Assembly: GCA_023266875.1 (NCBI GenBank)
Contig: JAHFOJ010000002.1
Coordinates: forward strand, 3,163-67,162
Length of the DNA stretch: 64,000 nucleotides
DNA from: Candidatus Giovannonibacteria bacterium
GTDB taxonomy: Bacteria > Patescibacteriota > Minisyncoccia > JACPKW01 > UBA11713
Reading direction: 5' to 3'
The notes beneath the pieces are model-generated. The model saw only the letters and a program-made list of their open reading frames with translations. It ran no database searches and had not been told where the DNA came from. Below, one piece after another: positions 26,597 to 55,867 of the stretch; positions within the stretch are counted from its first letter, which is position 1; each line of letters begins with the position of its first letter. The position numbers and the translations under genes were made by a program.

Positions 26597-27856
26597 TTAT
26601 AAGTAAATTTTAGGATCTAAATATCCACCATATGGCAATACCCCGCAGACTCTGGATTTTCTCATTTCTACTGTTCTTGCGTCGTATACTGTGAAATGCA
26701 AATGCGGGCCTGTTGTATACCCGGTATTCCCGGAATATCCTATCAATTGTCCCCTATTCACCGATGCCCCTTGTGGGATACTTTGAAACGAGAGATGCGC
26801 GTATAAAGTTGCCAGATGGTTTGGATGTTCAATCAATATCCATTTTCCATATGATCCTCCTGGGCATACCAAATCGCTATTTCCTTCTGATTTTATAGTC
26901 CCACTCTCTGACGCTAAAATCGGCGTGCCGACTGAAGCCTTAAGATCAATACCGTTGTGGCCGGAATTCCCATAAACATCGCCTACAGATGACAGAGCGA
27001 AAGCTGTTAATCCGAAAGATTGAGTTATGATGGGATTTTGGACTGGCCAAGCTAAAACTCCTGATCTTGCACCCGGCAAGCTGGATGGATCAATTAGCAA
27101 TTTCAATTGATCTTCAATTTTAGAAATTTCCTGCTCAATTTCTGCTCGCTTATTTCGACGGGTACTAACAAGTTTTTGATATTCCGATTCTTTATTTTTA
27201 GTGTCGCGCAAAAGCTGATCCTTAGCTTTACGCGTGGACACCTCAATAGATTGCTCGACTTTCAGTTCAGAAAAATAATTTTGAAGGTCTGCTTTCGTGC
27301 TTTCCTCTTCCCGCTTATTTGACTCTAAATTATCTTTCAACCCCTTCAAGCGATCAAGATTTTCTCTGACTGAAGCTTGTAAATTTTCGATTCTTTCGAC
27401 ATCAGTGAAAAATTCCGAAAACTCGCTTTTTCTCACTAAGATTTCCAAAAGAGACTCCCCGTCTGTTTCACGAAGAGTTCTTATTATCTCCGCAAGAGCG
27501 GTTTTCCTGGAATCAATGTCTGAGGTACTTCTATTTATTTCGAGTGCCAAGCGCTTTAAAATTAGCTGGGATGTATTAATTTTGCTTTGTGTGAGCGTAA
27601 TTTTTGCGGCAAGCTGCTTTATTGAAACATCTCTTTTTTGAATTTCGTTTTTAAGAGTATTTACTTGGTTCTCTGCCGATTCGATTTGGGCTTGATACGC
27701 AGCGATCTCTTGCTCAATTTGCTTTATTTGATTCTGCCTTTCGGCTATGGAATTTTTTAGATCGTCAATAGGCGCGGCGAAACTCACCCGGCCATGGAAA
27801 ACTGCTAACGAGAAAAATAATAAAAAAATAGAAAATAGCTTGGGGCGGTTTTTCAC
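26597..27856 (-). CDS. M23-family metallopeptidase with an N-terminal coiled-coil (EnvC/LytM-like)
   Basis: A signal/TM segment and about 230 aa of coiled-coil. The C-terminal M23 motifs are HNGIDL, the AHLS section and PHLHF. Confidence 0.85.
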   Translation of the reverse strand: MKNRPKLFSIFLLFFSLAVFHGRVSFAAPIDDLKNSIAERQNQIKQIEQEIAAYQAQIESAENQVNTLKNEIQKRDVSIKQLAAKITLTQSKINTSQLILKRLALEINRSTSDIDSRKTALAEIIRTLRETDGESLLEILVRKSEFSEFFTDVERIENLQASVRENLDRLKGLKDNLESNKREEESTKADLQNYFSELKVEQSIEVSTRKAKDQLLRDTKNKESEYQKLVSTRRNKRAEIEQEISKIEDQLKLLIDPSSLPGARSGVLAWPVQNPIITQSFGLTAFALSSVGDVYGNSGHNGIDLKASVGTPILASESGTIKSEGNSDLVCPGGSYGKWILIEHPNHLATLYAHLSFQSIPQGASVNRGQLIGYSGNTGYTTGPHLHFTVYDARTVEMRKSRVCGVLPYGGYLDPKIYL

Positions 27857-27864
27857 TCTTATTA

Positions 27865-29172
27865 TTATACCTTATAGCTTGTGATATTTAGAGCAAAATC
27901 AATCCGCCTTAATGATTCCTCTTTCCCTAAAATTTCTGCGATCTCAAACGGTCCTGGAGATACTTTCCTACCCGTAAGAGCGACGCGAAAAGGCCATAAA
28001 ATTCTACCCTTATCCCCTTCCCCTATAGCCTTCAAGAATATACTCTCTAGTCTTTCCTTATCAAACCCGCCTGCCGAAACATCCTCTACTAATTTCTTAA
28101 TTTTGTTCAGAGCCTCCAAAACTTCGCTTGTGACCATTTGTTTCCAAACTAAAAGATTCTTGTCGTATTTTGGTGCTTCATAAAAATATTGGACTTTGTT
28201 CGGCAATTCGGATAACTTCTTCAGCCGCGGTTTTTCAAGCGCGATTATTTTCTCGTTATCTAGCCCGGATTCAAAAAATTCAATAGGCAGAAAAGGGCTT
28301 GCGATCTCCAATAATGCCTTATTATCTTTCTCTCTAATATACTCCCCGTTCATCCAATCCATTTTTTTATTATCAAATATCGCGCCCGCTTTGCCTACCC
28401 TTTCGAGTGAAAATGACTTAAAAAGTTCATCCTTTGACATAACCTCTTTATCTCCCTCTGGATGCCATCCCAAAAGCGCCAAAAAATTATATAAAGCCTC
28501 CGGCAAATAACCTTGGTTCTTGTATTCCTCTACCGATTCAGCGCTGTGCCGTTTTGATAATTTAGATCGATCTGGACCCAAGATCAAAGGGAGGTGAGCA
28601 TAAATAGGCTGAGGAAAAGTCAACGCGGATTGAAGTAAGATTTGGCGCGGGGTATTGGAAATATGATCCTCACCGCGAATGACATGCGATATTTTCATTT
28701 CCGCGTCATCAACAACCACCGCCAAATGGTAAAGCGGTTCATCTAAGCTCTTCGCCACCACAAAATCCCCGAGATCGGATGTATCAAATTCTATTTTACC
28801 GCGGACAATATCCTCAAACTCGACCCGCTTCTTGGGATTTTTAAATCTTATAACTTCAGATCGCTCGCCTTTCGACTCCTTCGATAAATAAGCATTTCCG
28901 GAATCTATAAGTTTTTTTAAATATTTCTTATGGATCTCTATCCGCTCAGATTGCCGATAAAATTCCCCCCAATTTATGCCGAGCCACGACAAACCATTCG
29001 TGATGCTTTTTTCGTATTGCTCAAGCGACCTCGCTTTATCCGTATCTTCAATGCGCAAAATAAATTTACCCGCAGGCGGCTTTGCGAATAATAAATTAAA
29101 TAAGGCAGTCCGAGCTCCGCCTAAATGAAAAGGCCCTGTGGGGCTCGGTGCGTAACGAGTTCTGATTTCCAT
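27865..29172 (-). CDS. gltX: Glutamyl-tRNA synthetase (short form)
   Basis: A class I HIGH motif (PSPTGPFHLGGARTALFN) and KMSKS (KLSKR), with the GluRS catalytic-domain pattern. It is 435 aa long with a reduced anticodon-binding domain. Confidence 0.88.
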   Translation of the reverse strand: MEIRTRYAPSPTGPFHLGGARTALFNLLFAKPPAGKFILRIEDTDKARSLEQYEKSITNGLSWLGINWGEFYRQSERIEIHKKYLKKLIDSGNAYLSKESKGERSEVIRFKNPKKRVEFEDIVRGKIEFDTSDLGDFVVAKSLDEPLYHLAVVVDDAEMKISHVIRGEDHISNTPRQILLQSALTFPQPIYAHLPLILGPDRSKLSKRHSAESVEEYKNQGYLPEALYNFLALLGWHPEGDKEVMSKDELFKSFSLERVGKAGAIFDNKKMDWMNGEYIREKDNKALLEIASPFLPIEFFESGLDNEKIIALEKPRLKKLSELPNKVQYFYEAPKYDKNLLVWKQMVTSEVLEALNKIKKLVEDVSAGGFDKERLESIFLKAIGEGDKGRILWPFRVALTGRKVSPGPFEIAEILGKEESLRRIDFALNITSYKV

Positions 29173-29174
29173 AA

Positions 29175-30299
29175 TTAATGCGACAATGCTAGTTTAAGTA
29201 TTTCTTCAGCAATCTTATCCGCAGCATCAAGCCGAGCAAATGCAGTCGCGGCCTTACGCATTCGTTCCACGGCCGCCTTATCCGCCTGCAGTTTTTTAAT
29301 TTCAAAAATAAGGAGGTGCGGTGTCAGATTTTTTTCTTCCATAACTATTGCCGCCCCGCATCTTGCATAGGCATAAGCGTTTTCGCGCTGTTCGTCCTGC
29401 GCGGCCGTCGGGAAAGGAATTAATATCGAAGGGAGCCCCCAGGCTGCAATCTCGAAAATAGCCCCCGCTCCCGCTCTTGAAACCACTAACGCGCTAACCA
29501 GCGCGGCATTTCTATACGCACCCTCATCTAAAAATTCGTAAACATGGTAGCGGTTTTTAGCATCCGTATTTTCAAAAACAATAGAGGCTCGCAATTTTGC
29601 TTCGCGAAAATTATTACGACCGGTAACGTGTATTATCTGGAAATCCCTGATTAATTCGGGCGCTATATCCAAGACAAAGTCGTTTAAAGCTTTGGCGCCA
29701 AGCGATCCTCCTAAGAATAAAATAGTGTCAACGCCGCTGTCTAAATTGAAAATTTCATTCGCTTCAACGACATTTCCGCCAATAATTTGTTTGCGCACTG
29801 GGTTCCCGGTAAGCGCAGTTCTTTCGGCCGGAAAATATTTTGCGGTTTCAGGGAAAGAAACCGCGATACGACTAGCGAACTTTGACGCCCATTTAGTGAC
29901 CTTGCCCGGAATTATATCCGACTCATGAATCACAAGCGGAATTTTGAATATTTTAGCCGCGACTAACGCTGGGAAACTATCATATCCGCCTTTCGCAAAA
30001 ATTACGTCCGGAAAATCAAGATAAATCTTAAATATAGCTTTTATAGCCCCCCAGAGCGTTTTAAAAGGATCGATTAAATTCATTATGGAAAAATACCGCC
30101 TAATTTTTCCTGACGGCAATTTCATGAATCTTATTTCCTCTTCAGAAAGCAATTGCGGATCGTATGGCTTGGATGCACCATATATCAGTTCCAGATCAAA
30201 TATCTTATCTCGTTCAGTTTTATCTTTAAGCGCCCGCGCTACGGCGATTAAAGGGTAAAAGTGCCCCCCAGTTCCACCTCCGGTTAAAAAAATTTTCAT
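29175..30299 (-). CDS. murG: Undecaprenyldiphospho-muramoylpentapeptide beta-N-acetylglucosaminyltransferase MurG
   Basis: MKIFLTGGGTGGHFYPLIAVARAL, the GT28 N- and C-domains and a C-terminal ...GAAIV motif region. Confidence 0.9.
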   Translation of the reverse strand: MKIFLTGGGTGGHFYPLIAVARALKDKTERDKIFDLELIYGASKPYDPQLLSEEEIRFMKLPSGKIRRYFSIMNLIDPFKTLWGAIKAIFKIYLDFPDVIFAKGGYDSFPALVAAKIFKIPLVIHESDIIPGKVTKWASKFASRIAVSFPETAKYFPAERTALTGNPVRKQIIGGNVVEANEIFNLDSGVDTILFLGGSLGAKALNDFVLDIAPELIRDFQIIHVTGRNNFREAKLRASIVFENTDAKNRYHVYEFLDEGAYRNAALVSALVVSRAGAGAIFEIAAWGLPSILIPFPTAAQDEQRENAYAYARCGAAIVMEEKNLTPHLLIFEIKKLQADKAAVERMRKAATAFARLDAADKIAEEILKLALSH

Positions 30300-30306: not shown

Positions 30307-31392
30307 CTATAATCTAGCCCTAGAAATATTCAGTAAAATTCCTATTTCAGCAAGCGTGATCGCGAGAGCCGAACCGCCTTGAGAAACAAACGGCAAAGGT
30401 ATACCCGTGAGCGGCAAAAGTCCGGACAGAGCCGCTATATTCACCAATGCTTGTACAATAATAAGTATAACAATTCCCGACCCAAAAAGTCTACCGAAAG
30501 AATCAGAAGCCTCGAGTGAAACCACAACTCCACGCCAAGCAAATAAAATAAATAAACTAACCAATATCGCGCTGCCCACAAATCCGAATTCTTCAGCGGC
30601 TACCGCGAAAATCGAATCACCCACCGGCTCCGGGAGATACTGAAACTTTTGCCTCGACATGCCAAACCCGCGCCCAAAAATACCGCCTGAACCAATGGCT
30701 ATAAGCGCTTGGCGCAATTGATATCCGGAACCCTGAGGATCGTGCGTCCGATCCGTAAAAACTTTAAAGCGCTCGAGGCGATACGGCTCAAAACGAACTA
30801 AAGCCGAAAAGAGCACTGCCCCAGCGAGAATTATTAAACAAATATGTTTAAGCGAACCACCCGCCGCTAGAAATAAAAAAAGTCCGGAGATGGCCATAAC
30901 TCCAAACGTCCCCACGTCCGGCTCTGATATTATAAGCGTGCCAGCCAAAACGCTGACTAAAATGAATGGCAATAACCCTTCTCTAAAAGTTTTTATGGCG
31001 GCGTATTTGGCTGAAAAGACGGCGGAAAGATAGGCGATATATGCGAATTTAATGAATTCCGATGGCTGAAAATTGACAGGCCCGAAGCCGATCCAGCGCC
31101 TCGCTCCGCCAAAAGATATTCCGATACTCGGGATAAGCACTAAAACTCCTAATATCAACCCTGCGACATATAGAGGAATAGCAAATTTTCGCCAAAATCT
31201 ATAAGGAATCCTTGAAGTTATGGCCATTGAAACAAGCCCCAAAGCTCCTCCCATGGCCAGTTGGCGCAAAACGTAATAGTAAGGAGACAGATCCTTCTTA
31301 GTAGTGAGGCCAATAGACGCTGAAGACAGTATAAAAAACCCAGCGAGCACTAGAATTAAAACAATCCATTTCAAAAGCGCGTCGGATCTCAT
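30307..31392 (-). CDS. ftsW: SEDS-family peptidoglycan glycosyltransferase FtsW/RodA
   Basis: A 10-TM profile with conserved blocks (PSEFIKF, SEPDVGT, AEEFGFVGS, TGIPLPFVSQGGSA). Confidence 0.88.
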   Translation of the reverse strand: MRSDALLKWIVLILVLAGFFILSSASIGLTTKKDLSPYYYVLRQLAMGGALGLVSMAITSRIPYRFWRKFAIPLYVAGLILGVLVLIPSIGISFGGARRWIGFGPVNFQPSEFIKFAYIAYLSAVFSAKYAAIKTFREGLLPFILVSVLAGTLIISEPDVGTFGVMAISGLFLFLAAGGSLKHICLIILAGAVLFSALVRFEPYRLERFKVFTDRTHDPQGSGYQLRQALIAIGSGGIFGRGFGMSRQKFQYLPEPVGDSIFAVAAEEFGFVGSAILVSLFILFAWRGVVVSLEASDSFGRLFGSGIVILIIVQALVNIAALSGLLPLTGIPLPFVSQGGSALAITLAEIGILLNISRARL

Positions 31393-32699
31393 TTAAGTTC
31401 GCGCACCCACCTTTTAAATTTGTTACCGCGGTCCTCATAATTTTTAAATTCATCAAAGCTTGTTGTACTTGGCTCTAATGCGACTGTGTCGCCTGGCTTT
31501 GCCAGTGTCGCTGCAGATTTCAATGCACCTTGAAGAGTTAACGCTACTTTAAAATTTTTCTTGCCCGATTTTTTAAAGTGGCGTGAAAGTTCTCGCCTCG
31601 CTTGCCCAAAGAATATTACGAATTTGACATCCGGATGAGCAAGCCGGCGCGCGAGTTGCCCGAGATTTAGATTTTTATTATGCCCGCCGGAAAGAACGAT
31701 CTTTTGGCCTCCAATAGAATTTATACCTTCGATTGCGGAGCCGACATTCGTCGCTTTCGAATCATTAAAATAATTAACACCATGTAATTCTCGCACAAAT
31801 TCATTTCGATGCGGCAAACCTTTAAAAGTTTTTAGCGCTTTTTGAATTGATTTTATTTTGACACCGAGGGCAATCGCCGCGAGAATCGCCGCCATGGCAT
31901 TTTTCAAATTATGATTTCCTACTAAGTGAAAATCGCTAAGCGGAAAAATCGCCCCCAATTTTTTATGGAAAATGTGATTTTCGCTCACATAGATATCCGC
32001 GTTCTTATTTTTTAGCGAGAATTTATATTTTTTTCCTTTTGAGTAGGAGGAGGCTCTTTGCGAACGGCGGTTGTCCAAATTATATATAACTGTATCCGAC
32101 CTTTCTTGGAACCGAGAAATGTTCGCTTTAGCGGAATAATATTCAGACAAGGTTTTATGCTTATCTAAATGCTCATCGTAAATATCAAGGATAACCGCGA
32201 TTTCCGGAGAAATTTCTAAGTCCTGAAGCTGGAAACTCGAAAGCTCAAGAATCGTAATATCTCTCTTGCTTAATTTACCCAAAAGCGGCAAAGGGTTTAT
32301 TCCAATGTTGCCAGCTAAATTAACACGCTTGCCTGATTCGCGAAGAATTTTGTAAATTAAAGAAACGGTGGTGGTCTTTCCTGCGCTCCCCGTTACGCCC
32401 ACGACCTTGCCAAGTTTTTTTGACATAAAAAGGCGAGTAAGACTAGAAACATTCCCACTTAGTTTATTTAATTGCGGAAGGTTTAACGGGATGCCCGGGC
32501 TTCTATAAACCACATCAAAGCTACCCAAATTATCGAGATAACGACTACCAAGTATGGCGTGCGTCCCTTTAGGCAATTTTATATTTTCATTCTTATCTCG
32601 AATTTCTATATTAACCTCATCTTTTTTCTTCAGATAAGAAAAGAGGGCTTGGCCCTCGAGCCCAAAACCCAGAATCGCGATCTTCTCCTTATTCTTCAT
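31389..32699 (-). CDS. murD: UDP-N-acetylmuramoylalanine--D-glutamate ligase MurD
   Basis: A Mur ligase Walker-like GVTGSAGKTTT and the central and C-terminal Mur ligase domains. It sits in dcw-cluster context. Confidence 0.88.
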   Translation of the reverse strand: MKNKEKIAILGFGLEGQALFSYLKKKDEVNIEIRDKNENIKLPKGTHAILGSRYLDNLGSFDVVYRSPGIPLNLPQLNKLSGNVSSLTRLFMSKKLGKVVGVTGSAGKTTTVSLIYKILRESGKRVNLAGNIGINPLPLLGKLSKRDITILELSSFQLQDLEISPEIAVILDIYDEHLDKHKTLSEYYSAKANISRFQERSDTVIYNLDNRRSQRASSYSKGKKYKFSLKNKNADIYVSENHIFHKKLGAIFPLSDFHLVGNHNLKNAMAAILAAIALGVKIKSIQKALKTFKGLPHRNEFVRELHGVNYFNDSKATNVGSAIEGINSIGGQKIVLSGGHNKNLNLGQLARRLAHPDVKFVIFFGQARRELSRHFKKSGKKNFKVALTLQGALKSAATLAKPGDTVALEPSTTSFDEFKNYEDRGNKFKRWVRELK

Positions 32700-34294
32700 A
32701 ATTTCCTGATTACCCGGCCTGCAAGTTTCCCTGTAACTTCTCCGGATTTCGCCGCAAGTTCTCCATTCACATAAACCGCCTCAACTCCTTCATTTCTTAA
32801 ATAAGGGTCCTTATAATCGGATGGGGCGTGAAGAGACGCCGGATCCAGTATAACCAAATCAGCATAATAGCCCTTCTCTATTTTCCCTCTGTTTTTAATC
32901 CCCAACACATCTGCTGGAAATTCCGTCAATTTATAAATGACTTCTCCAAGAGCTAATTTTGATTTTCCGCTGGCGTAATTCTCAATCGCCTTAATCATCG
33001 CGCCGAGCGATCTTGGATGGGGCGAATCAAAATCCATGCCGGTTTTCGGCCAACTTCGCCCTTCCCCGTCGGTAGCGAACATCGAATAATCTTTAGACGC
33101 GAGCGCGCTTAAATGATCTGAAGAAATTACTTCATTGAAAATGGATACGCCAAGCCCGTTGATTTCGATCATTTTTATCAGGCATTCTTCAGGAGAAATG
33201 CCAGCCCTCGATGCAAGATCAGAAATTGTCTTTCCTAAAACAGTTTTATCTTCAAACGCCGAAGCTACAATTATCTTATCGTAATGAAGCGTGAGCGAGG
33301 AAAGATAATCAATGACCTCTCGGCGTTTTGCCCTGTCGTGAAGTGAAAATAATATTTTTTCCTTGCCGTCTTCTAAGATCCAAGGCGGCAAGAGCTGATA
33401 GAGAAGCGAGCCCGTCTTGGTGTAAGGGAAAAAATCTATGGTCAGACGCGCGCCCTCAGAGCGGGCGCTTTCAATTAGCGCGAGCGCATCATTAAACGAG
33501 TTCCATGACTGTCGTCCCAGCACCTTAAAATGCGAAAATTGCATTTTTCCTCCCGATTCGTGGAAGACGTCTATTAATTCCACGATCGCGGGCATAATAT
33601 TTCGTCCTTCATCTTTCAAGTGATGTTTTGTAATTCCCTCTTCCTTCGATACCACCTTAAAAAGTCGTAGAAGTTCTTCTTTCGCCGTTCCCCGCCCATG
33701 CGCCGCTCCAAGAGCGGTAGACATGCCAAAGGCGCCTTCGTCCATAGACTCGCGGAGCAATATTTCCATCTCTGAAATTTCTTCTCTGTTAGCCGGGCGG
33801 GACTCGTCGCCTACGATGCCCCTCCTTAGAGTGCCATGCCCAACCAAAGCCCCAAAATTTACACCCAATGACCGACGGCTAAGCTCGCTTAAAAGTTCAG
33901 AAACACGACGCCAATTGATATTGATATCTCGAATATTAACCCATTTCTGGATTCCTTCTATATCTTCCCCCTTAACCAGCGGCGCGAGCGACGAACCGCA
34001 ATTCCCGCCAATTATGGTGGTTACCCCTTGAAGAAGCATGCTCTCCTGCCCGGGCGCGTTAAATAAAGTCCAATGCGTATCGGAATGATTTGTGATATCT
34101 ATAAAACCTGGCGTGATGATTTTTCCGGTCGCGTCAATAATTGTTTTAGCATTCGCGCCTGTAAGATCGCCTGTATCCGCGATAGCATCGCCTTTGATAG
34201 CGACATCCATGCGTGAAAATTTTCTATCCTTATGGACATCAGCGTTTTTTATCAATACCGAATATTCCGCCATATAATTATTATAGCAAATCAA
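32696..34294 (-). CDS. N-acyl-D-amino-acid deacylase (D-aminoacylase) family amidohydrolase
   Basis: PGFIDITNHSDTHW...QGVTTIIGGNCGSS is an amidohydrolase metal-binding pattern typical of D-aminoacylases. It is inserted between murD and mraY. Confidence 0.75.
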   Translation of the reverse strand: MICYNNYMAEYSVLIKNADVHKDRKFSRMDVAIKGDAIADTGDLTGANAKTIIDATGKIITPGFIDITNHSDTHWTLFNAPGQESMLLQGVTTIIGGNCGSSLAPLVKGEDIEGIQKWVNIRDININWRRVSELLSELSRRSLGVNFGALVGHGTLRRGIVGDESRPANREEISEMEILLRESMDEGAFGMSTALGAAHGRGTAKEELLRLFKVVSKEEGITKHHLKDEGRNIMPAIVELIDVFHESGGKMQFSHFKVLGRQSWNSFNDALALIESARSEGARLTIDFFPYTKTGSLLYQLLPPWILEDGKEKILFSLHDRAKRREVIDYLSSLTLHYDKIIVASAFEDKTVLGKTISDLASRAGISPEECLIKMIEINGLGVSIFNEVISSDHLSALASKDYSMFATDGEGRSWPKTGMDFDSPHPRSLGAMIKAIENYASGKSKLALGEVIYKLTEFPADVLGIKNRGKIEKGYYADLVILDPASLHAPSDYKDPYLRNEGVEAVYVNGELAAKSGEVTGKLAGRVIRKL

Positions 34295-34324: not shown

Positions 34325-35377
34325 TCAGCGCCCCAATAGAGCCGTAACCATGCCGACTATGGCAGAGACAGCGGCGAGAACCCATGTCCTCATTACCACT
34401 TTGTACGAGGGCCATCCCAAAGCCTCAAAATGATGGTGCAGAGGGGCAACCAAAAAAACTTTGCGTCCTAAAAAACGCTTGGAGAAAAGCTGGATTATCA
34501 CAGATGAAGAATCTAGAACAAGGGGCAGGGCGATAATCGGAAGAACTAAAACTGCATCGGTTAAAAATGCTATGACCGTAAGCGCGGCCGTGAGTCCAAT
34601 TATGCCCGTCTCCCCCATATAAAATCTGGCGGGAGGAATGTTAAACCACAAAAAAGCTGAAATGGCGCCCGCGATAACCGCCGAAAGAGTCGCAAGGTCT
34701 ATTTGGTTTTGGAAAAAAGCGATGCCGGCGTAAGCAGAAAAAATCATAGCCATCACTCCCCCAGCAAGCCCGTCAAGCCCGTCAATTACGCCGCCTGAAA
34801 AAGTAGCGAGCATCACGAGCACAAAAAATATCGGGAAAAACCAGCCGAGCGAAAAATCTCCCTGAAATGGAATATAAATATGGTTAATATCGAGCTTCAC
34901 GAAAAACCACCACGCACCCACGAGTGCGATTAAAATAACCAAAAATATGCGCGCCGTTAGCCGCATGCCTCCGCCGGCATAACTTCCCTTGCCGAATACC
35001 TGCTCTAAATCGTCCGCCAAACCGACAAGTGACGCCGCAACAAGAGTGAAAAGCGGAAGCCATGTCTGCGAACGAGAAAGAAAATTCAACTTAGAAAAAA
35101 GCGGGCTGCCGGCGAGCGACAATGCCCAGATCGCAAGTGAAATAACAAGCGTCACTCCCCAAACTAAAATCCCGCCCATTCGGGGAGTCTTTTTTTCTTC
35201 GTCGTTATGCAAACGCTGGGAAATTTGCGCGACCTTGCCATCAATTGTTTTCGGAACGCTATGCTTCTTCCAAAGCTTATATTTGTAAAGATAATGCGTT
35301 AAAATCGGCGTGGTCAAAATGCCAACAATAAACGCCAGCGCCGAGAGTCCAAAAACTTTTAAGACATTTAAGATCAT
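34325..35377 (-). CDS. mraY: Phospho-N-acetylmuramoyl-pentapeptide transferase MraY
   Basis: A 10-TM protein with ...GLADDL..., ...VIDGLDGLAGG... and ...PLHHHFE... motifs. Confidence 0.92.
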   Translation of the reverse strand: MILNVLKVFGLSALAFIVGILTTPILTHYLYKYKLWKKHSVPKTIDGKVAQISQRLHNDEEKKTPRMGGILVWGVTLVISLAIWALSLAGSPLFSKLNFLSRSQTWLPLFTLVAASLVGLADDLEQVFGKGSYAGGGMRLTARIFLVILIALVGAWWFFVKLDINHIYIPFQGDFSLGWFFPIFFVLVMLATFSGGVIDGLDGLAGGVMAMIFSAYAGIAFFQNQIDLATLSAVIAGAISAFLWFNIPPARFYMGETGIIGLTAALTVIAFLTDAVLVLPIIALPLVLDSSSVIIQLFSKRFLGRKVFLVAPLHHHFEALGWPSYKVVMRTWVLAAVSAIVGMVTALLGR

Positions 35378-36429
35378 AATCCTACATTACTTCCATTTTT
35401 TTCTGATGCAAAATAAATTAAGACGGCGTTAGCAATCTGTGCAGCATCAAAAAAACGCCCCTCTTCGCTTGAACCTAAGATTGAAACAACAATGGGATGT
35501 TCAAAACCGGCATCGAAAATAAAAACTAAGTTTCCTCCCGCAAGATCAGTATATCCTGTTTTTGACGCGAGGATACGCGGAACTAAGCTAAATGATTTGT
35601 TCGTGCTTACGCCAGATATGACTCTATTCTTATCTGAAACAATTTTTATACTCTCGGCTCCAGTCGCAAGCATCATGCTGTTATGATTTTGAAACAAGTA
35701 CTCCATAAGTCCCGCAACATCTTTCGCGCTGCCTTCTGCCCCATCCGCATCACCGCCGCCATCTTTAATATCGAGTCCATTTGGATTTGAAAACGACAGG
35801 CTTAAAAAATCTAATTCTCTTGCGCGTTGGTTCATAAGCATTACAAACCTTGCCGGCGTGCTCCCGTTGCCATCAAGGCTAGAACCAACAAATCCGGCAA
35901 GGGCATATGCCGCATCATTTGAAGAGGAGACAAGCATATAGTTTAATAAGTCTTCTTTCTTAAATTTATCCCCGGCCCGGAAGCCATCATCGCCTTCTTC
36001 GCGTATCGCTTCGATTGAAATCGGGACATAAAATCCAGCGGGGATGCGCTCCTCGGATACAAGCGCGGTCATCAGTTTGGTTATGCTCGCAAGCGGCCTT
36101 AAAACATCGCTGTCTTTTTCAAATAAAACTTTATTTTCTTTCAGATCAAAAACATACGCGCTCTTTGCTTCAATATCCAGATTCTTGAAAGGATCAACTG
36201 ACTCTGTGTTTTCACGTTTCGCCCCTTCGCTTCTAGGCACGCTTAAATTAATAGACGAGAATGCACCTGCCTCTTGATCTTTAAATATCTTATAATCTAC
36301 CGCCCTAGCACCAGTGACAATCCCCAATTCTGGCACCGACGTCCTAAAAACGAAAAATGAGAACAAAAAGAAAATCCCGAGAACAATTATTTTCTGTAAC
36401 TTTTCATCCATTGTTTTTCTCTCCATTTT
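35374..36429 (-). CDS. D-alanyl-D-alanine carboxypeptidase (S11 serine peptidase, DacA-like)
   Basis: SxxK (SITKLM), SxN (SSSND) and KTG (KTGYT) motifs. The track start at 36474 overlaps scpB; the internal Met at 36429 or 36414 is more likely. Confidence 0.8.
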   Translation of the reverse strand, partial: KMERKTMDEKLQKIIVLGIFFLFSFFVFRTSVPELGIVTGARAVDYKIFKDQEAGAFSSINLSVPRSEGAKRENTESVDPFKNLDIEAKSAYVFDLKENKVLFEKDSDVLRPLASITKLMTALVSEERIPAGFYVPISIEAIREEGDDGFRAGDKFKKEDLLNYMLVSSSNDAAYALAGFVGSSLDGNGSTPARFVMLMNQRARELDFLSLSFSNPNGLDIKDGGGDADGAEGSAKDVAGLMEYLFQNHNSMMLATGAESIKIVSDKNRVISGVSTNKSFSLVPRILASKTGYTDLAGGNLVFIFDAGFEHPIVVSILGSSEEGRFFDAAQIANAVLIYFASEKNGSNVGL

Positions 36430-36958
36430 TTTCGCTTTTACGCAAATTTTCCATCTCGGTTCTGAATTCTTCAAAGTCCGGCAATTTTTTAATCTCCCCT
36501 ATTCCGACAAATTTAAGAAATTCAAAAGTCGGGCGATATAGCCACGCGCGCGCGTCTTTAGGGTCAGAAACTCGCTCTATAAGCCCGCGTATCATTAAAT
36601 TTCTCACAGTGAAACTCGAATTTACAGCTCTTATATAATCAATTTCGGAACGCGTAAGCGGGCCTTTGTAAACAATAATGGCGAGCGTCTCAAGCACCGC
36701 GCGCGATAAATCTTGCCCGATCTCATCTTTGGCGAAATCAGCTGTAAATTTTGCGAGTTCGGGTGCTGATGCCATCATAAATTCTCCGTCTTTTTTGACA
36801 ATGGCGAGCCCGCGGGATTGAAGCGACTCCTCTAGCTCTTTGATGCCGCGGTTTACCAAATCCTCTTTCACTTTTAGAAATAAGGCGAGACGCGAAAGAG
36901 ACATTGGCTCACCTTTTAGAAATAATATTGCTTCTATTTTTTTAGAAATGTCGCTCAT
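36404..36958 (-). CDS. scpB: Segregation and condensation protein B
   Basis: Tandem wHTH pattern (IEAILFLKGEPMSLSRLA...; LETLAIIVYKGPLTRSEID). It lies downstream of scpA. Confidence 0.88.
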   Translation of the reverse strand: MSDISKKIEAILFLKGEPMSLSRLALFLKVKEDLVNRGIKELEESLQSRGLAIVKKDGEFMMASAPELAKFTADFAKDEIGQDLSRAVLETLAIIVYKGPLTRSEIDYIRAVNSSFTVRNLMIRGLIERVSDPKDARAWLYRPTFEFLKFVGIGEIKKLPDFEEFRTEMENLRKSEKNGEKNNG

Positions 36959-37656
36959 TAATTCGTTTTTTCGAGCTCAATATTTCCAAACCGTTCCTCT
37001 TGGCTGACCAATAGCGCCCCTTCTTTCACAAGCTCGAGAAGCGCTAAAAATCCAATGATCACTTCCGTTTTGTTTTTCGCGCCTACCACATCCTTAAACG
37101 AAGCCTTTAAGCGCTCAGACAATCGCCTAATCAATTCCACCATTTTTTCTTCAATTGAGATTACTTTCTCAAGCGTTTTGGATGGCAATTCTTTTAACTT
37201 TGGGAATCCAGCGACTAAATTTTTCAGAGACAAATTAAGCGACCCAATCGAAACTCCTATTGGCTCAATAAACCCAAAATCCATGCCTTTGAAAGCTTCT
37301 CTTGAAAACATTTGGTTTAGCCCCCAAGCTTCCTTAATATTAAGCCCAAGTTCGCGCAGGCGCTGAAGCAGCTTCAATCTTGTTTCTAAATCATAAATCC
37401 CTTCCGTTTCTTCCTTTGTCAATTCAAGCGTTGGTAAAAGCGATCGGGATTTTATAAGCATCAAAGTGGAAGCAACCACAAGAAAATCAGCGGCTTCAGC
37501 GCGCGGGAAATCAGTCAACTTTCTCATGTGCTTGATATACTCATCCGTAACGGCCGACAAAGAAACAACTGATATCGAAAGCTTTTGCACCTCAATTAAA
37601 TCGAGGAGCAAATCAAGCGGCCCTTCAAATCCGCTAAGTTTTACGTTGAATTTCAT
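36958..37656 (-). CDS. scpA: Segregation and condensation protein A
   Basis: FEGPLDLLLDLIEVQKLSISVVSLSAVTDEY... is a kleisin ScpA pattern. Confidence 0.88.
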   Translation of the reverse strand: MKFNVKLSGFEGPLDLLLDLIEVQKLSISVVSLSAVTDEYIKHMRKLTDFPRAEAADFLVVASTLMLIKSRSLLPTLELTKEETEGIYDLETRLKLLQRLRELGLNIKEAWGLNQMFSREAFKGMDFGFIEPIGVSIGSLNLSLKNLVAGFPKLKELPSKTLEKVISIEEKMVELIRRLSERLKASFKDVVGAKNKTEVIIGFLALLELVKEGALLVSQEERFGNIELEKTN

Positions 37657-39071
37657 TTTTTGTCTTTTTTAATTTCGAGCCCCAATTCTTTCAGCTGCGC
37701 TTCTGATACTTCCGAAGGCGCCCCCATCATCAGATCTCGCCCTTCGCCTGTCTTTGGAAACGCGATCACTTCGCGGATATTCGGCTCATTCATTAAAATC
37801 ATAATGAGCCGGTCTATGCCAGGCGCGATCCCGCCGTGCGGAGGCACGCCAAAGCGAAATGCCTCAAACATATGTCCAAACTGGCGCTTGATATCTTCTT
37901 TTTTGTTGCCAAGTGCTTCAAAAACTGCTTTCAGAAGTTCCGGATCATGAACGCGGATCGACCCGCCTCCAACTTCAAAACCGTTTAGGACAAAATCATA
38001 TTGATCAGCAAGCATCTCCCCGGGGCGTTCCTTAAATTCCTTCCAAAATTCATCTACATTTTCCACTTGCGGTTTCGTGAATGGATGATGTGTCGCATCC
38101 CATCTCTTCTCCATTTCTCTCCATTCAAACGCCGGAAAATCCTCGACGAAAAGAAACGCAAGCTCATCGGGATTATTTTTGTCATTTCGAATATCAGGCT
38201 TGTCAGAACCATATTTTTTCATTGCTTCCTTATAAGTAATCCGCGGAATTTTGCCATCGGGATCGAGCGTAAGTTTTTTTTCTGGATACAGAGACCTGGC
38301 GAGAGCCAGGAACAAACCTTCAGTCAAGCGAAGCACATCTTCCTTTGTTACAAAACTCATTTCCAAATCCAGCTGGGTGAATTCGGGCTGGCGATCGCCC
38401 CGCGTGTCTTCGTCCCTAAAGCAGCGCGCAATCTGAAAATATTTTTCAAAGCCCGCGACCATTAATAGCTGCTTATATTGTTGCGGGGATTGCGGCAAGG
38501 CGTAAAAAGAACCCTGTTCAAGACGCGACGGCACAAGATAGTCTCGCGCGCCTTCCGGAGTTGACTTTGATAGAATTGGAGTTTCTATTTCTATAAAATC
38601 GCGCTCGGTCAAAAAATCTCGAATGAATTTTATTATCCTTGCGCGCTCGCGGAGATTCTTTGAAAGCCGTGGTCTGCGTAAATCTAGATATCGGTATTTC
38701 ATCCGAACATCCTCACCAATGTCATAGCCGGCGCTGGAAAGATCGAATGGCGGAGTATTTGCCTCGGCCAATATTCTTATCTCCGCGACCTTCATCTCAA
38801 TTTTACCCGTCGGGCTTTCAGAATTTATCATATCTGCCGGCCGCTCCTTGATCTCACCTGTAACAGAAACCACCCATTCCGGACGCAATTTCTGCGCTAA
38901 AACGCGCAGTTCTTCCGGTTTCGGAGCAACCACTAACTGGATTTTCCCCAAACTGTCGCGCAGGTCAAAAAAAATAAGCTTGCCGTGATCTCGTCTGACA
39001 TCAATCCATCCGCAAAGCTCTACTTTTTCGCCCAAATGCTCCGCGCTATCTGTGGTATATATCCTTGACAT
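37653..39071 (-). CDS. aspS: Aspartyl-tRNA synthetase (short type lacking the GAD insertion)
   Basis: An N-terminal OB domain and class II motifs (FYALPQSPQQYKQLLMV; FRDEDTRGDRQPEFTQLD; GGGSIRVHDPE...GIAPGIDRL). It is 472 aa. Confidence 0.92.
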   Translation of the reverse strand: MSRIYTTDSAEHLGEKVELCGWIDVRRDHGKLIFFDLRDSLGKIQLVVAPKPEELRVLAQKLRPEWVVSVTGEIKERPADMINSESPTGKIEMKVAEIRILAEANTPPFDLSSAGYDIGEDVRMKYRYLDLRRPRLSKNLRERARIIKFIRDFLTERDFIEIETPILSKSTPEGARDYLVPSRLEQGSFYALPQSPQQYKQLLMVAGFEKYFQIARCFRDEDTRGDRQPEFTQLDLEMSFVTKEDVLRLTEGLFLALARSLYPEKKLTLDPDGKIPRITYKEAMKKYGSDKPDIRNDKNNPDELAFLFVEDFPAFEWREMEKRWDATHHPFTKPQVENVDEFWKEFKERPGEMLADQYDFVLNGFEVGGGSIRVHDPELLKAVFEALGNKKEDIKRQFGHMFEAFRFGVPPHGGIAPGIDRLIMILMNEPNIREVIAFPKTGEGRDLMMGAPSEVSEAQLKELGLEIKKDKK

Positions 39072-39719: not shown

Positions 39720-41354
39720 CTATGCCCCATATGGAGCTGGATTCGGAAGATTTCGGCGTAGCGGCAGTCGGATCAAGAACGTGCTGCCTCTGCCTACGCC
39801 TGGTGATTCTGCCCAAATTTCTCCTCCGTGATCAGATACTATTCGTTTCGCGAGATAAAGCCCAAGCCCTATTCCTTCCGCGTTCGCTTTCGCGCCCGTA
39901 TTTCCTCTGGTAAATCGGCTGAATATTCTTTCAAGATCTTCTTTCACCATGCCAACACCCGAATCGAGGAAAGTAATCAATAAAACCTCCCCCCCGCCGC
40001 TGCTTTTCGTTTCAATTTTTATTTTTACAAAACCTCGCGGGGTGTATTTGAGGTCATTGTCTATAATATTTGTAATAACTTGGCGGAACTTTTCCTTATC
40101 CACCGAAACATCTGGCAAAGTAGAGTCCGGCTTTTCGAAAATAAGTTCAATTTGCTTATCACGTGCTGGTCCTTGAAATTCGTCAACAACATTAGCGATC
40201 ATAGGAGCGATCTGGGTTGATTCAAAATTGTAATTCATGCGCCCCGATTCAATCCGTGACAAATTAAGAAAATCATTCACTAAATTAATTAAGCGCTCAT
40301 TTGAAAGATAAACTTTCGAGAGAGTTTCTCTGACTTTAGAAGATATTTCCCCAAAACTTCCCTCCTGAATCATAGAAATATATCCTTTAATAATTGAAAG
40401 CGGAGTCCGAAGCTGATGAGTGGCAAGCGAAAGAAATTCCGATTTCAGCTGATCAAGTTTCTTTAGTTCCACATTGGCTTTCTCCAAATCCTCCGCCAAC
40501 TTCTGAATCTGTTCTCTGGAGCGAACTTCTTGTAAAACACTGCGTATTAAAAGTAACCCAAAGAGAATAACCAATACCAGAAGGCCACCGTCAAGAAATG
40601 CATCCTGTAAAGTTCTAGCAATAACTGTTCTTACTAAAAGAAATACACAAATTGAAAAAACCAGTAGTTCGGTAGCAATAACACGCACATTAAATAAACG
40701 ATGCTTTATGACAGCATATCCAAGGAAAAAGGGAAAAAAAGAAACTAAAAAATTACCAAATGGCGGGATAGGAACTCCATACCATAAAAAAAAGTTCGTA
40801 GCCCCACCTCCGAATCCAAAAATCGCCCCAAGGACAACATAAGAGATCTGCCCTTTCTTTGATTTATCGGATAGCTTATAAGATTTTGCCAATAAAATGA
40901 AAGCATATAAAACCAGCACAAAATAGAAAAAGATTAGATAAAAAGTATAAAGCGGTCCAGGACTCGGCCAAAATGGGAAAAATAATTTTGGCCCTATGCT
41001 CTTTATAAATAAATTAGAGGTAGAAAAAAGGGTAAGTAAAATCGAAATAATATAAATTAAATATAAAAAACTGCGCTTATTTTTAGACTGACCCAACAGC
41101 TCTAAAACCCAGTGAAAGTAAAAAACTGGGATAAAAATTGATCCTATAGAGAAAAATCTTATCCAGAAAAGCGCTGGTTCAACACTTGCACTCGAAAGCC
41201 ACTGCCAATATCCAAAACTCCAGACTGCTATAGCAGCCGTCATAAGAAAAAACAATTGGTTAATTCTATCCCGGAAGCTTTTATAAATAAGAAGGAACCC
41301 AAAACTTAAAGCAAATATTCCGTTTACTAATCCAGATAAAGCAAAAATATTCAT
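39720..41354 (-). CDS. Sensor histidine kinase with an N-terminal multi-TM sensor domain
   Basis: About 7 predicted TM helices, a coiled-coil, HisKA (LSLATHQLRTPLSII) and HATPase_c (...DSGVGM...GLGLYLAKRIV...). Confidence 0.85.
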   Translation of the reverse strand: MNIFALSGLVNGIFALSFGFLLIYKSFRDRINQLFFLMTAAIAVWSFGYWQWLSSASVEPALFWIRFFSIGSIFIPVFYFHWVLELLGQSKNKRSFLYLIYIISILLTLFSTSNLFIKSIGPKLFFPFWPSPGPLYTFYLIFFYFVLVLYAFILLAKSYKLSDKSKKGQISYVVLGAIFGFGGGATNFFLWYGVPIPPFGNFLVSFFPFFLGYAVIKHRLFNVRVIATELLVFSICVFLLVRTVIARTLQDAFLDGGLLVLVILFGLLLIRSVLQEVRSREQIQKLAEDLEKANVELKKLDQLKSEFLSLATHQLRTPLSIIKGYISMIQEGSFGEISSKVRETLSKVYLSNERLINLVNDFLNLSRIESGRMNYNFESTQIAPMIANVVDEFQGPARDKQIELIFEKPDSTLPDVSVDKEKFRQVITNIIDNDLKYTPRGFVKIKIETKSSGGGEVLLITFLDSGVGMVKEDLERIFSRFTRGNTGAKANAEGIGLGLYLAKRIVSDHGGEIWAESPGVGRGSTFLIRLPLRRNLPNPAPYGA

Positions 41355-42232
41355 ATCTTACTAACCTTAGCAATAATATGGACTTTTAGTGGTTCAAATA
41401 TTATGTCTGGTTCACTCGAAAAACCGGCCTCAACCAATAGCTTCTTTAAATCCTTAGGTTCGCGATAATACATAAAAGGCCATCCTAAATTTGTGACAAA
41501 CGGCATTTCCTCATTTGGATGAACATTCGCCACAATAAAAACACCACCAGGCTTTAATATATTGTAAACACTTCTTATAAGTTCTGCTCCGCTTTCTTCC
41601 GAAAAATAATCTAAGAGCCCAACCATTTCTGCAATATCAAAAAAGTCCCCGCCCGATATTAACGTTTTTAAGTTACGTGCATCACCCCTAATCCAATCAA
41701 AAAGATCTGTGGAATCAAACTCCCCAGCGAGCTTTTTGCCAGCATCAATGGCGCGCTCATCCTTATCTATGTTTAAAACTTTTATATTTAAATGCCTCTC
41801 TTGGGAGATACGGTTTATAGATTGAATAAGAGCTCGCATCGAACCACCCCCAACGCTTATAATTTTGATTAAACGAGTATCGTCTATCCTCGTTAACCTT
41901 AAAATTTCTTCGTCCATATTCATTTCAACCAGCGCAAGCCGATTTCTTAAGGCTTTCGGCTGAGAGAAACAATGATGCCAAAATAAATCCGCCAAGCCCT
42001 GCATAATTCCTCTCGAAAATAAGCCACGTTGGTGTCTGGTATACATTGCATCTAAAGCAGCGGCAGTTCCTGTATTTTGAACTACAGTTTTAGAATCATG
42101 GCTTGTAGATCGCATCATCTTCTTTAGAAATTCCGGAGAAACATGATTCATAATTGGAACGCTAAAAATCCTGATAAACTTTGTCACCAGTCCATGAGTT
42201 TCCATTTCATTAGATATGGTTGTCGTTCCCAT
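41351..42232 (-). CDS. Class I SAM-dependent methyltransferase translationally coupled to the histidine kinase
   Basis: Motif I IISVGGGSMRA, an acidic motif II and motif IV in a Rossmann-fold MTase arrangement. It overlaps the HK gene by 4 nt. Confidence 0.65.
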   Translation of the reverse strand: MGTTTISNEMETHGLVTKFIRIFSVPIMNHVSPEFLKKMMRSTSHDSKTVVQNTGTAAALDAMYTRHQRGLFSRGIMQGLADLFWHHCFSQPKALRNRLALVEMNMDEEILRLTRIDDTRLIKIISVGGGSMRALIQSINRISQERHLNIKVLNIDKDERAIDAGKKLAGEFDSTDLFDWIRGDARNLKTLISGGDFFDIAEMVGLLDYFSEESGAELIRSVYNILKPGGVFIVANVHPNEEMPFVTNLGWPFMYYREPKDLKKLLVEAGFSSEPDIIFEPLKVHIIAKVSKI

Positions 42233-44745: not shown

Positions 44746-45378
44746 TTAAGCGCGAATATTTTCAAAAAGCGCAAGTATTTTTTCGTGTATAACCGCCGTC
44801 CCCTCTTCTACCGTAATCGAATTAGAATCGTCAAGCCTAAACGGCTCCCCGACGCAAATTTGAATATTTCGGCCTTGGGCTTTTATTGCGATGGGGATCA
44901 CCGGGACTTTCGCGCCTAGCGCGATTGCAGATGCCCCGTGGCGAAAAACTCCAAGCGCGCCGCTTTTTTGCACTCGTCCCTCTGGGAACATCACAACCGT
45001 CTCGCCTGACCTTAGAATATCGAGCGGGGTTTTTATGGCAGCGTCTATCCCTTCCCCGCGCTTCGACGGGAAAACCCCCATAATTCTGAACAGCAACGGG
45101 ATGAGGCCAATTTTCCGCAAAAAATCAAGAAATCTGTGATTAAATTTTATATATTCCCCCATATAACGAAGCGGAACGAGCGGCGAGAAAAGCGGCAAAG
45201 AAAGTCCGATTAAAAATGAGTCGTAAAACGCAATATGATTTGAAACTATAAGCACCGGCCCTGCGACGCGTTTAAACTCTTCGCGGCCCGAAATTTTGAC
45301 CTTACGAAAAATATGAAATAGCAGCCAAGAGCCGGGTTTTATTATAAAATTCTGACTAAATTTATACCAATATTTCAT
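44746..45378 (-). CDS. Lysophospholipid/glycerol-3-phosphate acyltransferase family protein (PlsC-like)
   Basis: The NHxxxxD motif (VSNHIAFYDS) and FPEGR motif. Confidence 0.8.
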   Translation of the reverse strand: MKYWYKFSQNFIIKPGSWLLFHIFRKVKISGREEFKRVAGPVLIVSNHIAFYDSFLIGLSLPLFSPLVPLRYMGEYIKFNHRFLDFLRKIGLIPLLFRIMGVFPSKRGEGIDAAIKTPLDILRSGETVVMFPEGRVQKSGALGVFRHGASAIALGAKVPVIPIAIKAQGRNIQICVGEPFRLDDSNSITVEEGTAVIHEKILALFENIRA

Positions 45379-45500
45379 TGCGCGACCTAATTGACGATGT
45401 TAGAAATTATTTAATTTTGTCTTTTAAATATGGTGAGTAAAAATTTCTATACTTAGATTGAAATTCAAAGTCTTTCCAACTATTAGAATCTATAATTTTT

Positions 45501-46646: not shown

Positions 46647-46650
46647 AATA

Positions 46651-46908
46651 TTAAAAAGATTCTATTGGTAGCTTACGCTTACTACTACCCTTGTTCTGAA
46701 TTACATAATCCACAATATCGCCAACTGTCTTAATATGATTCATTTTACTAGGCTCTATTGAAACTTTATATTCATCACTCAAAACAGCAATTAATTCGAC
46801 TATATCCATTGAGTCCTTGGCGATATCTTCGAGAAGTGTAGAATCATTAACCTGATTCGGTTCTTTATATAACGTAGCTCTTATTATTTCTATAATTTCA
46901 TCTTTCAT
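46651..46908 (-). CDS. Acyl carrier protein (phosphopantetheine attachment DSMD)
   Basis: 85 aa with LEDIAKDSMDIVELIAVL, a PP-binding serine motif. Confidence 0.75.
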   Translation of the reverse strand: MKDEIIEIIRATLYKEPNQVNDSTLLEDIAKDSMDIVELIAVLSDEYKVSIEPSKMNHIKTVGDIVDYVIQNKGSSKRKLPIESF

Positions 46909-47456: not shown

Positions 47457-47458
47457 AT

Positions 47459-48157: not shown

Positions 48158-48158
48158 A

Positions 48159-49969: not shown

Positions 49970-49970
49970 A

Positions 49971-52694: not shown

Positions 52695-52713
52695 AATCTG
52701 TTATAATTCAACT

Positions 52714-53214: not shown

Positions 53215-53218
53215 CCTT

Positions 53219-53656: not shown

Positions 53657-53687
53657 TGAATTTCTTGTCCGGCATTGTTCCAATGCT

Positions 53688-55851: not shown

Positions 55852-55867
55852 ATCCCAATTATACCAA

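Follow-up and report, generated by a model that had tools for sequence, protein, structure and literature searches.

The window analyzed here is a stretch of 64,000 nucleotides from contig JAHFOJ010000002.1 of a Candidatus Giovannonibacteria bacterium. In its division and cell wall (dcw) cluster, between mraY and murD, lies a gene, referred to below as AH, for a protein of the D-aminoacylase family of amidohydrolases. Relatives of AH form a clade of Patescibacteria proteins in which residues of the family's catalytic apparatus have been lost several times over, the forms that lost them are under purifying selection, and the gene recurs beside the ligase that adds glutamate to the peptidoglycan precursor. 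It is plausible, though short of probable, that AH serves as a ligand-recognition or accessory protein at the MurD step, perhaps with residual or retargeted hydrolysis.

The gene and its family

The features of the window that bear directly on AH are as follows.

32696..34273, minus strand: AH, D-aminoacylase-like amidohydrolase-fold gene, 525 amino acids (open reading frame, database protein P0001, Pfam/NCBIfam and PDB matches, structural model)
32696..32699, minus strand: ATGA overlap of 4 nt between the AH stop codon TGA (32698-32696) and the murD start codon ATG (32699-32697), read directly from the sequence
31389..32699, minus strand: murD (UDP-MurNAc-L-Ala:Glu ligase), TIGR01087 at 336.6 bits against a cutoff of 212
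34325..35377, minus strand: mraY, PF00953 and TIGR00445

The first-pass annotation of this DNA had described an amidohydrolase gene between mraY and murD, followed by ftsW and murG, and open reading frames with Pfam and TIGR matches confirmed this order. The extent that it gave, 32696-34294, corresponds to a real mechanical open reading frame (32696..34294, minus strand), but the TTG at 34294 is an in-frame upstream alternative start. The true start is almost certainly the ATG at 34273, because an exact public-database protein (P0001, 100% identity and coverage) and all homologues begin there, and the gene product is then 525 amino acids long. The homologues share the start consensus MAxYS and align end to end with the 525-residue form, and a Logan contig gene call agrees with it. 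The translation has no N-terminal signal or transmembrane segment, and the protein is predicted to be cytoplasmic. The 4-nt overlap with murD, also described previously, appears as the motif ATGA, which would be a signature of translational coupling. Co-transcription of the two genes, asserted in the same annotation, is plausible. The 51-nt spacer between mraY and AH has no terminator-like site on the coding strand; a scan for promoters and terminators around it was otherwise uninformative.

Matches to AH were found with the Pfam models Amidohydro_3 and Amidohydro_1, and the best NCBIfam model was PRK09061, at 145 bits and thus under its curated cutoff of 340. The D-aminoacylase of Alcaligenes faecalis (PDB 1M7J) was matched with E-values of 3e-58 (phmmer, single sequence) and 3e-93 (profile), and the other best solved relatives were KleDacyl (9G5M), PpOngB (9KB1), and the N-acyl-D-glutamate (N-acyl-D-Glu) deacylase Bb3285 (3GIP). 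The A. faecalis and Klebsiella sequences were rebuilt from the output of HMMER and leave residues 296-361 of 1M7J as a gap. An AlphaFold2 model of AH was obtained with a pLDDT of 88 and a pTM of 0.89. Comparison of this model by Foldseek with 9KB1, 9G5M, 1M7J, and 3GIP gave TM-scores on the query of 0.82-0.85, as against 0.55-0.60 for allantoinase (the next best, 0.60), hydantoinase, and dihydroorotase. Allantoinase and dihydroorotase sequences matched AH mainly through the N-terminal beta-domain, or through short C-terminal stretches, with single-sequence E-values of 1e-8 to 1e-4. By sequence and predicted structure, AH is therefore a member of the D-aminoacylase family (COG3653; subtype V amidohydrolases), as first called. 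The dihydroorotase-like assignment that had been named as its alternative does not hold, given the lower TM-scores and weak E-values of such folds. Relatives of AH carry the public names "amidohydrolase family protein", "D-aminoacylase", and "N-acyl-D-amino-acid deacylase". Identity as a MurL-type epimerase was considered and rejected: among the matches listed, the models NF041275, PF26298, and PF26299 hit a neighboring fusion protein found at some related loci and not AH.

AH shares with the characterized D-aminoacylases a fold that extends over the whole length of the protein, made up of a (beta/alpha)8 barrel, a beta-sandwich, and an alpha/beta insertion domain, at 26-27% sequence identity. 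It differs from them in an insertion domain that is about 30 residues longer, in a 7-residue insertion between the catalytic Asp and the HPR motif, and in a dcw/murD context instead of a catabolic one. The best structural match is PpOngB, a GlcNAc1A deacetylase (E 4e-47, TM-score 0.84). Bb3285 of Bordetella bronchiseptica (3GIP/3GIQ, EC 3.5.1.82) is matched with a profile E-value of 3e-81 and a TM-score of 0.83. The existence of this D-Glu-directed member makes a ligand of the D-Glu type plausible for AH, but AH is no closer to Bb3285 than to other D-aminoacylases, and Bb3285 has the full catalytic set (PMC12017989).

Active site of the window protein

Residues of AH were mapped to the A. faecalis numbering with three alignments (phmmer, profile HMM, and MAFFT L-INS-i), which agreed. 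The correspondences for the ten active-site residues considered are listed below.

His67 (first His of the HxH motif): Thr61, codon 34091..34093, minus strand; the motif reads Thr61-x-His63
His69: His63, retained (alignment)
Cys96 (beta-site metal ligand): Cys92, retained, codon 33998..34000, minus strand
Tyr192 (n-site, polarizes the scissile amide carbonyl): Ala190, codon 33704..33706, minus strand
His220: His218, retained, codon 33620-33622, minus strand
His250: His248, retained, codon 33530-33532, minus strand
Lys252 (carboxylate clamp): Lys250, retained, codon 33524-33526, minus strand
Tyr283 (carboxylate-binding, first Tyr of the YPY motif): Phe282, codon 33428..33430, minus strand; the motif reads FPY
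Asp366 (catalytic general base): Asp402, retained, codon 33068..33070, minus strand
Arg377 (alpha-carboxylate clamp): Arg421, retained, codon 33011..33013, minus strand

The substituted positions have been studied in relatives. Activity of PpOngB was abolished by the substitutions H68A and H70A, and alanine substitutions of its binding residues, including Tyr194, Tyr285, Lys254, Asp368, and Arg379, caused complete or significant loss of activity (PMC12017989). The residues Tyr194, Tyr285, Lys254, Ser291, Asp368, Leu370, and Arg379 (OngB numbering) are strictly conserved across AfDam-, BbDam-, and OngB-like enzymes, and the metal ligands are likewise described as conserved in the family (PMC12017989). 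The n-site Tyr, which is hydrogen-bonded to the scissile amide oxygen, is strictly conserved in the characterized enzymes (PMC12017989, PMC12149444), and the first Tyr of YPY (Tyr279 of KleDacyl) is a carboxylate-binding residue (PMC12149444).

On these alignments, the window protein is without three residues (His67, Tyr192, and Tyr283, replaced by Thr, Ala, and Phe) that are each important in every characterized relative. It retains the Cys/His/His ligands of a mononuclear beta-site, the Asp base, and the Lys/Arg carboxylate clamp, all of which it shares with the characterized enzymes. PpOngB, by comparison, keeps His68, His70, Tyr194, and Tyr285, mutation of each destroys or severely reduces its activity, and AH is without three of the four. 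The residues that line the predicted acyl pocket have also become small in the window protein, with Gly in place of Phe191 in addition to the changes at positions 67 and 192, so that the pocket would be enlarged. The position of Leu368 is occupied by Val, Ala, or Ser in the clade and by Glu in the window copy.

A Patescibacteria clade with an eroded active site

A scan that covered one genome for each species gave relatives of AH in at least 591 species genomes. The best 120 database matches were all about 525 residues long and 44-59% identical to AH, and those with names were from Patescibacteria. The best-scoring 80 loci, on which the locus counts below are based, came from Giovannoni-, Niyogi-, Taga-, Ryan-, Portnoy-, Sung-, and Moranbacteria and similar groups; they share common ancestry, so the counts do not represent independent events. 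Taxonomy labels of metagenome-assembled genomes (MAGs) are unreliable, and some of the loci carry Saccharibacteria or Bdellovibrionales labels. In a simple neighbor-joining tree with few outgroups (five canonical D-aminoacylases from plasmids and two PDB sequences), the Patescibacteria AH proteins formed one group. Next to it stood the long-form D-aminoacylases of Gemmatirosa, Tsukamurella, and Halobaculum, and the longer insertion domain is common to both. Two long proteins from non-Patescibacteria sources, P0124 (1077 residues) and P0125 (955 residues), are secreted and consist of a canonical long-form D-aminoacylase duplicated in tandem; each polypeptide has two complete catalytic units and an N-terminal signal-like segment.

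The ten active-site residues were checked in 114 distinct clade sequences, taken from an alignment of 120 rows. All ten were kept in six of them (L030, L032, L069, L071, L076, and L080, the L numbers denoting loci); the AH gene of L069 lies at 9980-11572. His69, His250, and Arg377 were kept in all 114, Lys252 in 112, and Glu224, Pro284, and Tyr285 were also invariant. At the other positions retention varied widely: His220 was kept in 109, Cys96 in 102, Asp366 in 84, Tyr192 in 47, Tyr283 in 36, and His67 in six, with Thr at position 67 in 83 of the 120 rows. Asp366 was replaced by Asn, Gly, Ala, or Ser in the 30 sequences that had lost it, Cys96 was lost in 12, and His220 in five. In a Moranbacteria group, His67 and Asp366 were both replaced by Asn (17 of 120 rows), and a subgroup of five rows had in addition Cys96 replaced by Ser and His220 by Tyr. 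A Tagabacteria-like group had Gly at position 96. Asp366 was lost separately in L039, L051, L037, P0051, L042/L044, and L074, and on the neighbor-joining tree losses of catalytic residues fell in several separate lineages. Such erosion across a clade is not seen in the characterized D-aminoacylases.

The loss of catalytic residues could indicate a decaying pseudogene or an annotation artifact. The open reading frames are intact in all 114 sequences, at 507-587 residues, and the fold of the window protein is predicted with confidence. Ratios of dN/dS were estimated for pairs of "dead" sequences, comprising those without Asp366 and His67 and those also without Cys96 and His220; they ranged from 0.039 (L045/L047, at an unsaturated dS of 0.17) up to 0.10, and comparison pairs gave 0.078 (full catalytic set) and 0.055 (the sub-clade of the window protein). 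On the strength of the intact lengths and these ratios, pseudogene decay was rejected as wholly improbable. The dead forms, judged by their codon substitutions, are functional proteins under strong purifying selection. The conserved function therefore cannot be the ancestral hydrolysis.

Another explanation is that AH is an active metallohydrolase that has been retargeted to a bulky-acyl peptidoglycan amide and serves in the recycling or remodeling of precursors. Candidate targets would be the L-Ala-D-Glu bond of muropeptides, the terminal D-Ala of stem peptides, or D-Ala-D-Ala, and these substrates are formally N-acyl-D-amino acids with a free alpha-carboxylate. Bb3285, for its part, reportedly also cleaves L-Xaa-D-Glu dipeptides, which would speak for this explanation. 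The window copy and most of its sub-clade have the beta-site triad, the Asp, and the clamp unchanged, and the acyl-pocket residues have become smaller (His67 to Thr, Phe191 to Gly, Ala, or Ser, Tyr192 to Ala, Ser, or Thr, and Leu368 to Val, Ala, or Ser), changes that are compatible with hydrolysis of a bulky-acyl substrate in window-like copies. The family can gain new substrates, OngB being an example, since PpOngB acts on non-amino-acid N-acetyl carboxylates with a single beta-site zinc (PMC12017989). Genes for a DD-carboxypeptidase and an M23 peptidase lie in the same block. Against retargeting, position 192 is hypervariable in the window sub-clade (Ala, Arg, Ser, Thr, Leu, Phe, Ile, Val, or His), which looks like relaxed constraint and not like a new catalytic solution, and at least one of Cys96, His220, His250, and Asp366 is missing in 36 of the 114 sequences (through loss of Asp366, Cys96, or His220), yet these members remain conserved. 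Cleavage of L-Ala-D-Glu in the cytoplasm, beside the enzyme that makes the bond, would moreover be futile unless tightly specific. Retargeted hydrolysis as the function of AH is thus considered unlikely.

Gene neighborhoods and the supply of D-glutamate

Open reading frames in the 80 loci were labelled with the window proteins and with the dcw proteins and MurI of E. coli. Among the 73 loci with at least 1.2 kb of sequence downstream, the gene directly after AH was murD in 33, a MurL::MurD2 fusion in five, ftsW in 24, and another gene in 11, so that a glutamate ligase follows immediately in 38 of 73 and within two genes in 42 of 73. The upstream neighbor was mraY in 26 of 69 loci. A Moranbacteria-like lineage has the AH-murD pair at a site outside the dcw cluster, where it follows a GAPDH gene. 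In this lineage the gene after AH is in some loci canonical murD (with or without murI) and in others MurL::MurD2, with AH constant. The order in L069 and L071 is murI-AH-murD, in which murI encodes a bona fide glutamate racemase (TIGR00067, 215 bits), and in L036 it is AH-murD-murI. In L074, murL lies divergently upstream of AH-ftsW. The link of AH to the ligase that adds D-Glu survives relocation and ligase replacement, and AH coexists with both known routes to D-Glu. The tie to the MurD step suggested in the first-pass annotation is accordingly backed by synteny in different genomic settings; the salvage mechanism attached to it is not.

The protein of 814-870 residues that follows AH in five loci (L045, L047, L053, L076, and L080) was identified as a MurL::MurD2 fusion. 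The MurL model matches the N-terminal half of the 838-residue neighbor in L047 (11577-14093) with an E-value of 6e-104, and the ligase half has Glu, Arg, and Pro at the positions of D182, K348, and A414, which are among those defined on E. coli MurD as distinguishing MurD from MurD2 in stereospecificity (PMC8788868). MurL::MurD2 ligates L-Glu and epimerizes it in place, so that free D-Glu is unneeded (PMC8788868). MurL is comparable to AH as a further gene next to murD with a bearing on the D-Glu problem, and as MurL::MurD2 it adjoins AH in these loci; it differs in having no amidohydrolase domain and in matching the MurL models that AH does not match. Fusions of this type are very common in Patescibacteria: the best 120 database matches were all fusions (from Moran-, Buchanan-, Uhr-, and Staskawiczbacteria and others), and most sources name them plain MurD. 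A 2021 review of the MurL/MurD2 pathway lists only some Proteobacteria and rare Actinobacteria. Further fusions were located in L089 (5001-7502), L090 (2426-4879), L091 (5001-7514), and L092 (5001-7442).

The MurD of the window has a mixed MurD/MurD2 signature, with Glu at the position of E. coli D182, Lys at K348, Thr at A414, and Phe at L416, and this signature does not settle whether it is specific for D-Glu or L-Glu. The same mix of Glu and Lys occurs in the Giovannonibacteria relatives L002-L004. The window also contains ddl (14284-15249) and a gene for a murF-like ligase (54553-55929).

These neighborhoods bear on the function first proposed for AH, that of an active N-acyl-D-Glu (or general N-acyl-D-amino-acid) deacylase that frees scavenged D-Glu for MurD in a genome without glutamate racemase. 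The closest characterized families are indeed D-aminoacylases, Bb3285 among them, AH and murD are coupled in translation, the window copy retains the Cys/His/His ligands, the Asp, and the clamp residues Lys252 and Arg377, and the ancestral, fully canonical members beside murD may have had deacylase activity. No gene for murI, murL, or alanine racemase was found within the 64-kb window, a result that says little about the whole genome. At the level of the family, however, replacement of a missing racemase was not supported, as clade members adjoin murI or a MurL::MurD2 that needs no free D-Glu; even among the six members with the full catalytic set, two adjoin murI (L069 and L071) and two adjoin MurL::MurD2 (L076 and L080). 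The AH of L036, with both Asp366 and His67 replaced by Asn, sits beside murD and murI together. The active site also fails to match the proposal, since the window copy is without His67, Tyr192, and Tyr283, the Asp is lost in over a quarter of the members counted above, and the dead forms are under purifying selection. A functional MurI has been reported for a Patescibacterium, according to the citation of Penalver et al. 2024 in PMC11974145. Salvage of D-Glu by AH is on these grounds quite improbable.

AH could also be a positional passenger, either an enzyme of D-amino-acid or N-acyl-amino-acid catabolism or the relic of one, held in a permissive slot of the dcw cluster with no role in the wall. 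The slot between mraY and murD holds unrelated genes in other Patescibacteria, including an M23 peptidase gene between mraY and AH in L007, L010, and L016; in compact genomes, long co-directional blocks hold many genes that have nothing to do with one another (here aspS, scpAB, and gltX); and much of the synteny could reflect shared ancestry within a few lineages. Set against this are the persistence of the AH-murD pair after its move out of the dcw cluster and after the replacement of murD by murL::murD2, the spread of the clade over so many species genomes, and purifying selection even where catalytic residues are gone, which is hard to square with a dispensable catabolic enzyme in minimal genomes. 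The passenger explanation appears very unlikely.

Proposed function of AH

The carboxylate clamp (Lys252 and Arg377), His69, His250, Glu224, and the Pro-Tyr of the YPY motif are invariant (Lys252 nearly so) in a protein under strong purifying selection, and ligand recognition is therefore the likeliest conserved job of the protein. In the scheme proposed here, the ancestor of the clade would have been a genuine N-acyl-D-amino-acid amidohydrolase recruited next to murD. Its catalytic apparatus would then have been dismantled piecemeal in most lineages, few members keeping every catalytic residue, and the clade would have been selected for a function to which the fold, the carboxylate clamp, and two histidines are essential but the catalytic machinery is not. 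The ligand may be an N-acylated D-amino acid with a free alpha-carboxylate, of the N-acyl-D-Glu type; an L-Ala-D-Glu muropeptide is a compound of the same kind. The conserved function would be tied to the D-Glu-installing ligase, however the D configuration arises, and AH may aid the MurD step not through the bulk release of free D-Glu but through binding, hand-off, or control. In the window copy, slow or retargeted hydrolysis of a bulkier N-acyl substrate would be possible through Cys92, His218, and His248 with Asp402.

Amidohydrolase folds that are non-catalytic and kept under selection include PyrC', the inactive dihydroorotase subunit of Pseudomonas aspartate transcarbamoylase, and the CRMP/DPYSL proteins. 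The enzyme whose gene adjoins that of PyrC' depends on it, and CRMPs appear among the distant fold matches of the AH model. These proteins belong to other subfamilies, the window AH has lost fewer residues than the clade members with an Asp to Asn change, such as the AH of L047 (9998-11569), and MurD is a putative partner of AH.

Several observations weigh against an accessory role at the MurD step. About a third of the loci have the order AH-ftsW with no murD nearby, an arrangement of which the complete chromosome OZ246412.1 is an example; L074 suggests that the ligase in such genomes may be of the MurL::MurD2 type. Four other MurL::MurD2 loci were examined, and in none of them did AH lie beside the ligase; two of the four were in a dcw context, and in these two the slot between mraY and the ligase was taken by unrelated genes, for a methyltransferase and a Cys-rich membrane protein. 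Because the slot accepts unrelated inserts, the position of AH by itself is weak evidence. No AH-MurD fusion was present among the 150 best cluster representatives. The intact metal triad and Asp of the window protein mean that it may be an active hydrolase with shifted specificity. The r-site, at which Arg295 of Bb3285 is the basic residue that pairs with the gamma-carboxylate of D-Glu (PMC12149444, PMC12017989) and which corresponds to Leu298 of AfDam, falls in the insertion domain that is some 30 residues longer in AH, where the alignment is unreliable.

The two inserts were located at 4257-5000 of L089 (the methyltransferase) and 4024-4986 of L091. The latter, a gene for a Cys-rich membrane-anchored protein of 320 residues with no Pfam match, was considered as a remnant of AH in the mraY-murD2 slot and rejected, as no HMM matched it. 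Of the long proteins among the cluster representatives, P0124 and P0125 are the tandem D-aminoacylases described above, and P0160 looks like the product of a frameshift.

Other features of the window

The window has a GC content of 42% and the gene content of a Patescibacteria (Parcubacteria-like) genome, and its closest relatives are Giovannonibacteria MAGs. The other genes of the block that contains AH are as follows.

26597-27856, minus strand: M23 peptidase, downstream end of the conserved block
27865-29172, minus strand: gltX, downstream in the conserved block
29175-30299, minus strand: murG, TIGR01133
30307-31392, minus strand: ftsW, TIGR02614
35374-36411, minus strand: S11 D-Ala-D-Ala carboxypeptidase, upstream in the conserved block
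36404-36958, minus strand: scpB, upstream in the conserved block
36958-37656, minus strand: scpA, upstream in the conserved block
37653-39071, minus strand: aspS, upstream in the conserved block

The order aspS-scpA-scpB-dacS11-mraY-(AH)-murD-ftsW-murG-gltX-M23 is kept in many Parcubacteria-type genomes (L002, L019, L022, L025, L030, L031, and others), always with the glutamyl-tRNA synthetase gene directly after murG and the M23 peptidase gene after that. A different layout was seen in L006 (7928-9988), in which AH-ftsW-murG is preceded by mreB-mreC (MreB_Mbl and MreC in Pfam) and a small open reading frame, not by mraY. Judged by the sizes of its reading frames and an actin-family phmmer match, L011 (7750-9962) has a similar layout. 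AH thus also travels with genes of elongation and division. The mechanical open reading frame of the S11 carboxypeptidase (35374-36474) starts at a TTG and overlaps scpB by 71 nt; the public gene call, of 345 residues, begins at 36411, which leaves an overlap of 8 nt with scpB. A hydrophobic segment at the N-terminus of this protein is consistent with export.

The cluster at 44746-54287 is an uncommon one for a minimal genome and resembles a small pathway for lipids or aminoacyl-lipids. It comprises two PlsC-type acyltransferases (44746-45378 and 53613-54287), an acyl-CoA dehydrogenase (45501-46646), an S-adenosylmethionine (SAM) methyltransferase (48159-48989), a truncated class-II aminoacyl-tRNA-synthetase-like protein (48970-49743), a thioester-reductase-type NAD_binding_4 protein (49971-51131), a KAS III-like protein (51104-52075), and a 4'-phosphopantetheinyl transferase (52002-52694). 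Three open reading frames of 392, 485, and 293 residues, within 867-3495 and at 41351-42232, had no Pfam match at E<=1e-5; the one encoding 293 residues (41351-42232) is translationally coupled to a histidine-kinase-like open reading frame at 39720-41354.

Implications

A literature search found no paper linking D-aminoacylase-family proteins with Patescibacteria or with the dcw cluster. For most members of the clade, the annotations "D-aminoacylase" and "N-acyl-D-amino-acid deacylase" probably misstate the function, and metabolic reconstructions should not count these proteins as sources of D-amino acids. The clade offers a clean natural series from enzyme to pseudoenzyme, useful for studying how the amidohydrolase fold is repurposed. 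The pathway for synthesis of peptidoglycan precursors, a major target of antibiotics, is regarded as closed, with all of its members enumerated. It is a rather unlikely but consequential possibility that a pseudoenzyme derived from a D-aminoacylase, or a strongly retooled enzyme, is a previously unrecognized component of the cytoplasmic part of this synthesis in Patescibacteria. If so, AH would add to that pathway a player so far unstudied, in a vast and largely uncultured bacterial branch whose minimal genomes make it likely that every retained gene matters.

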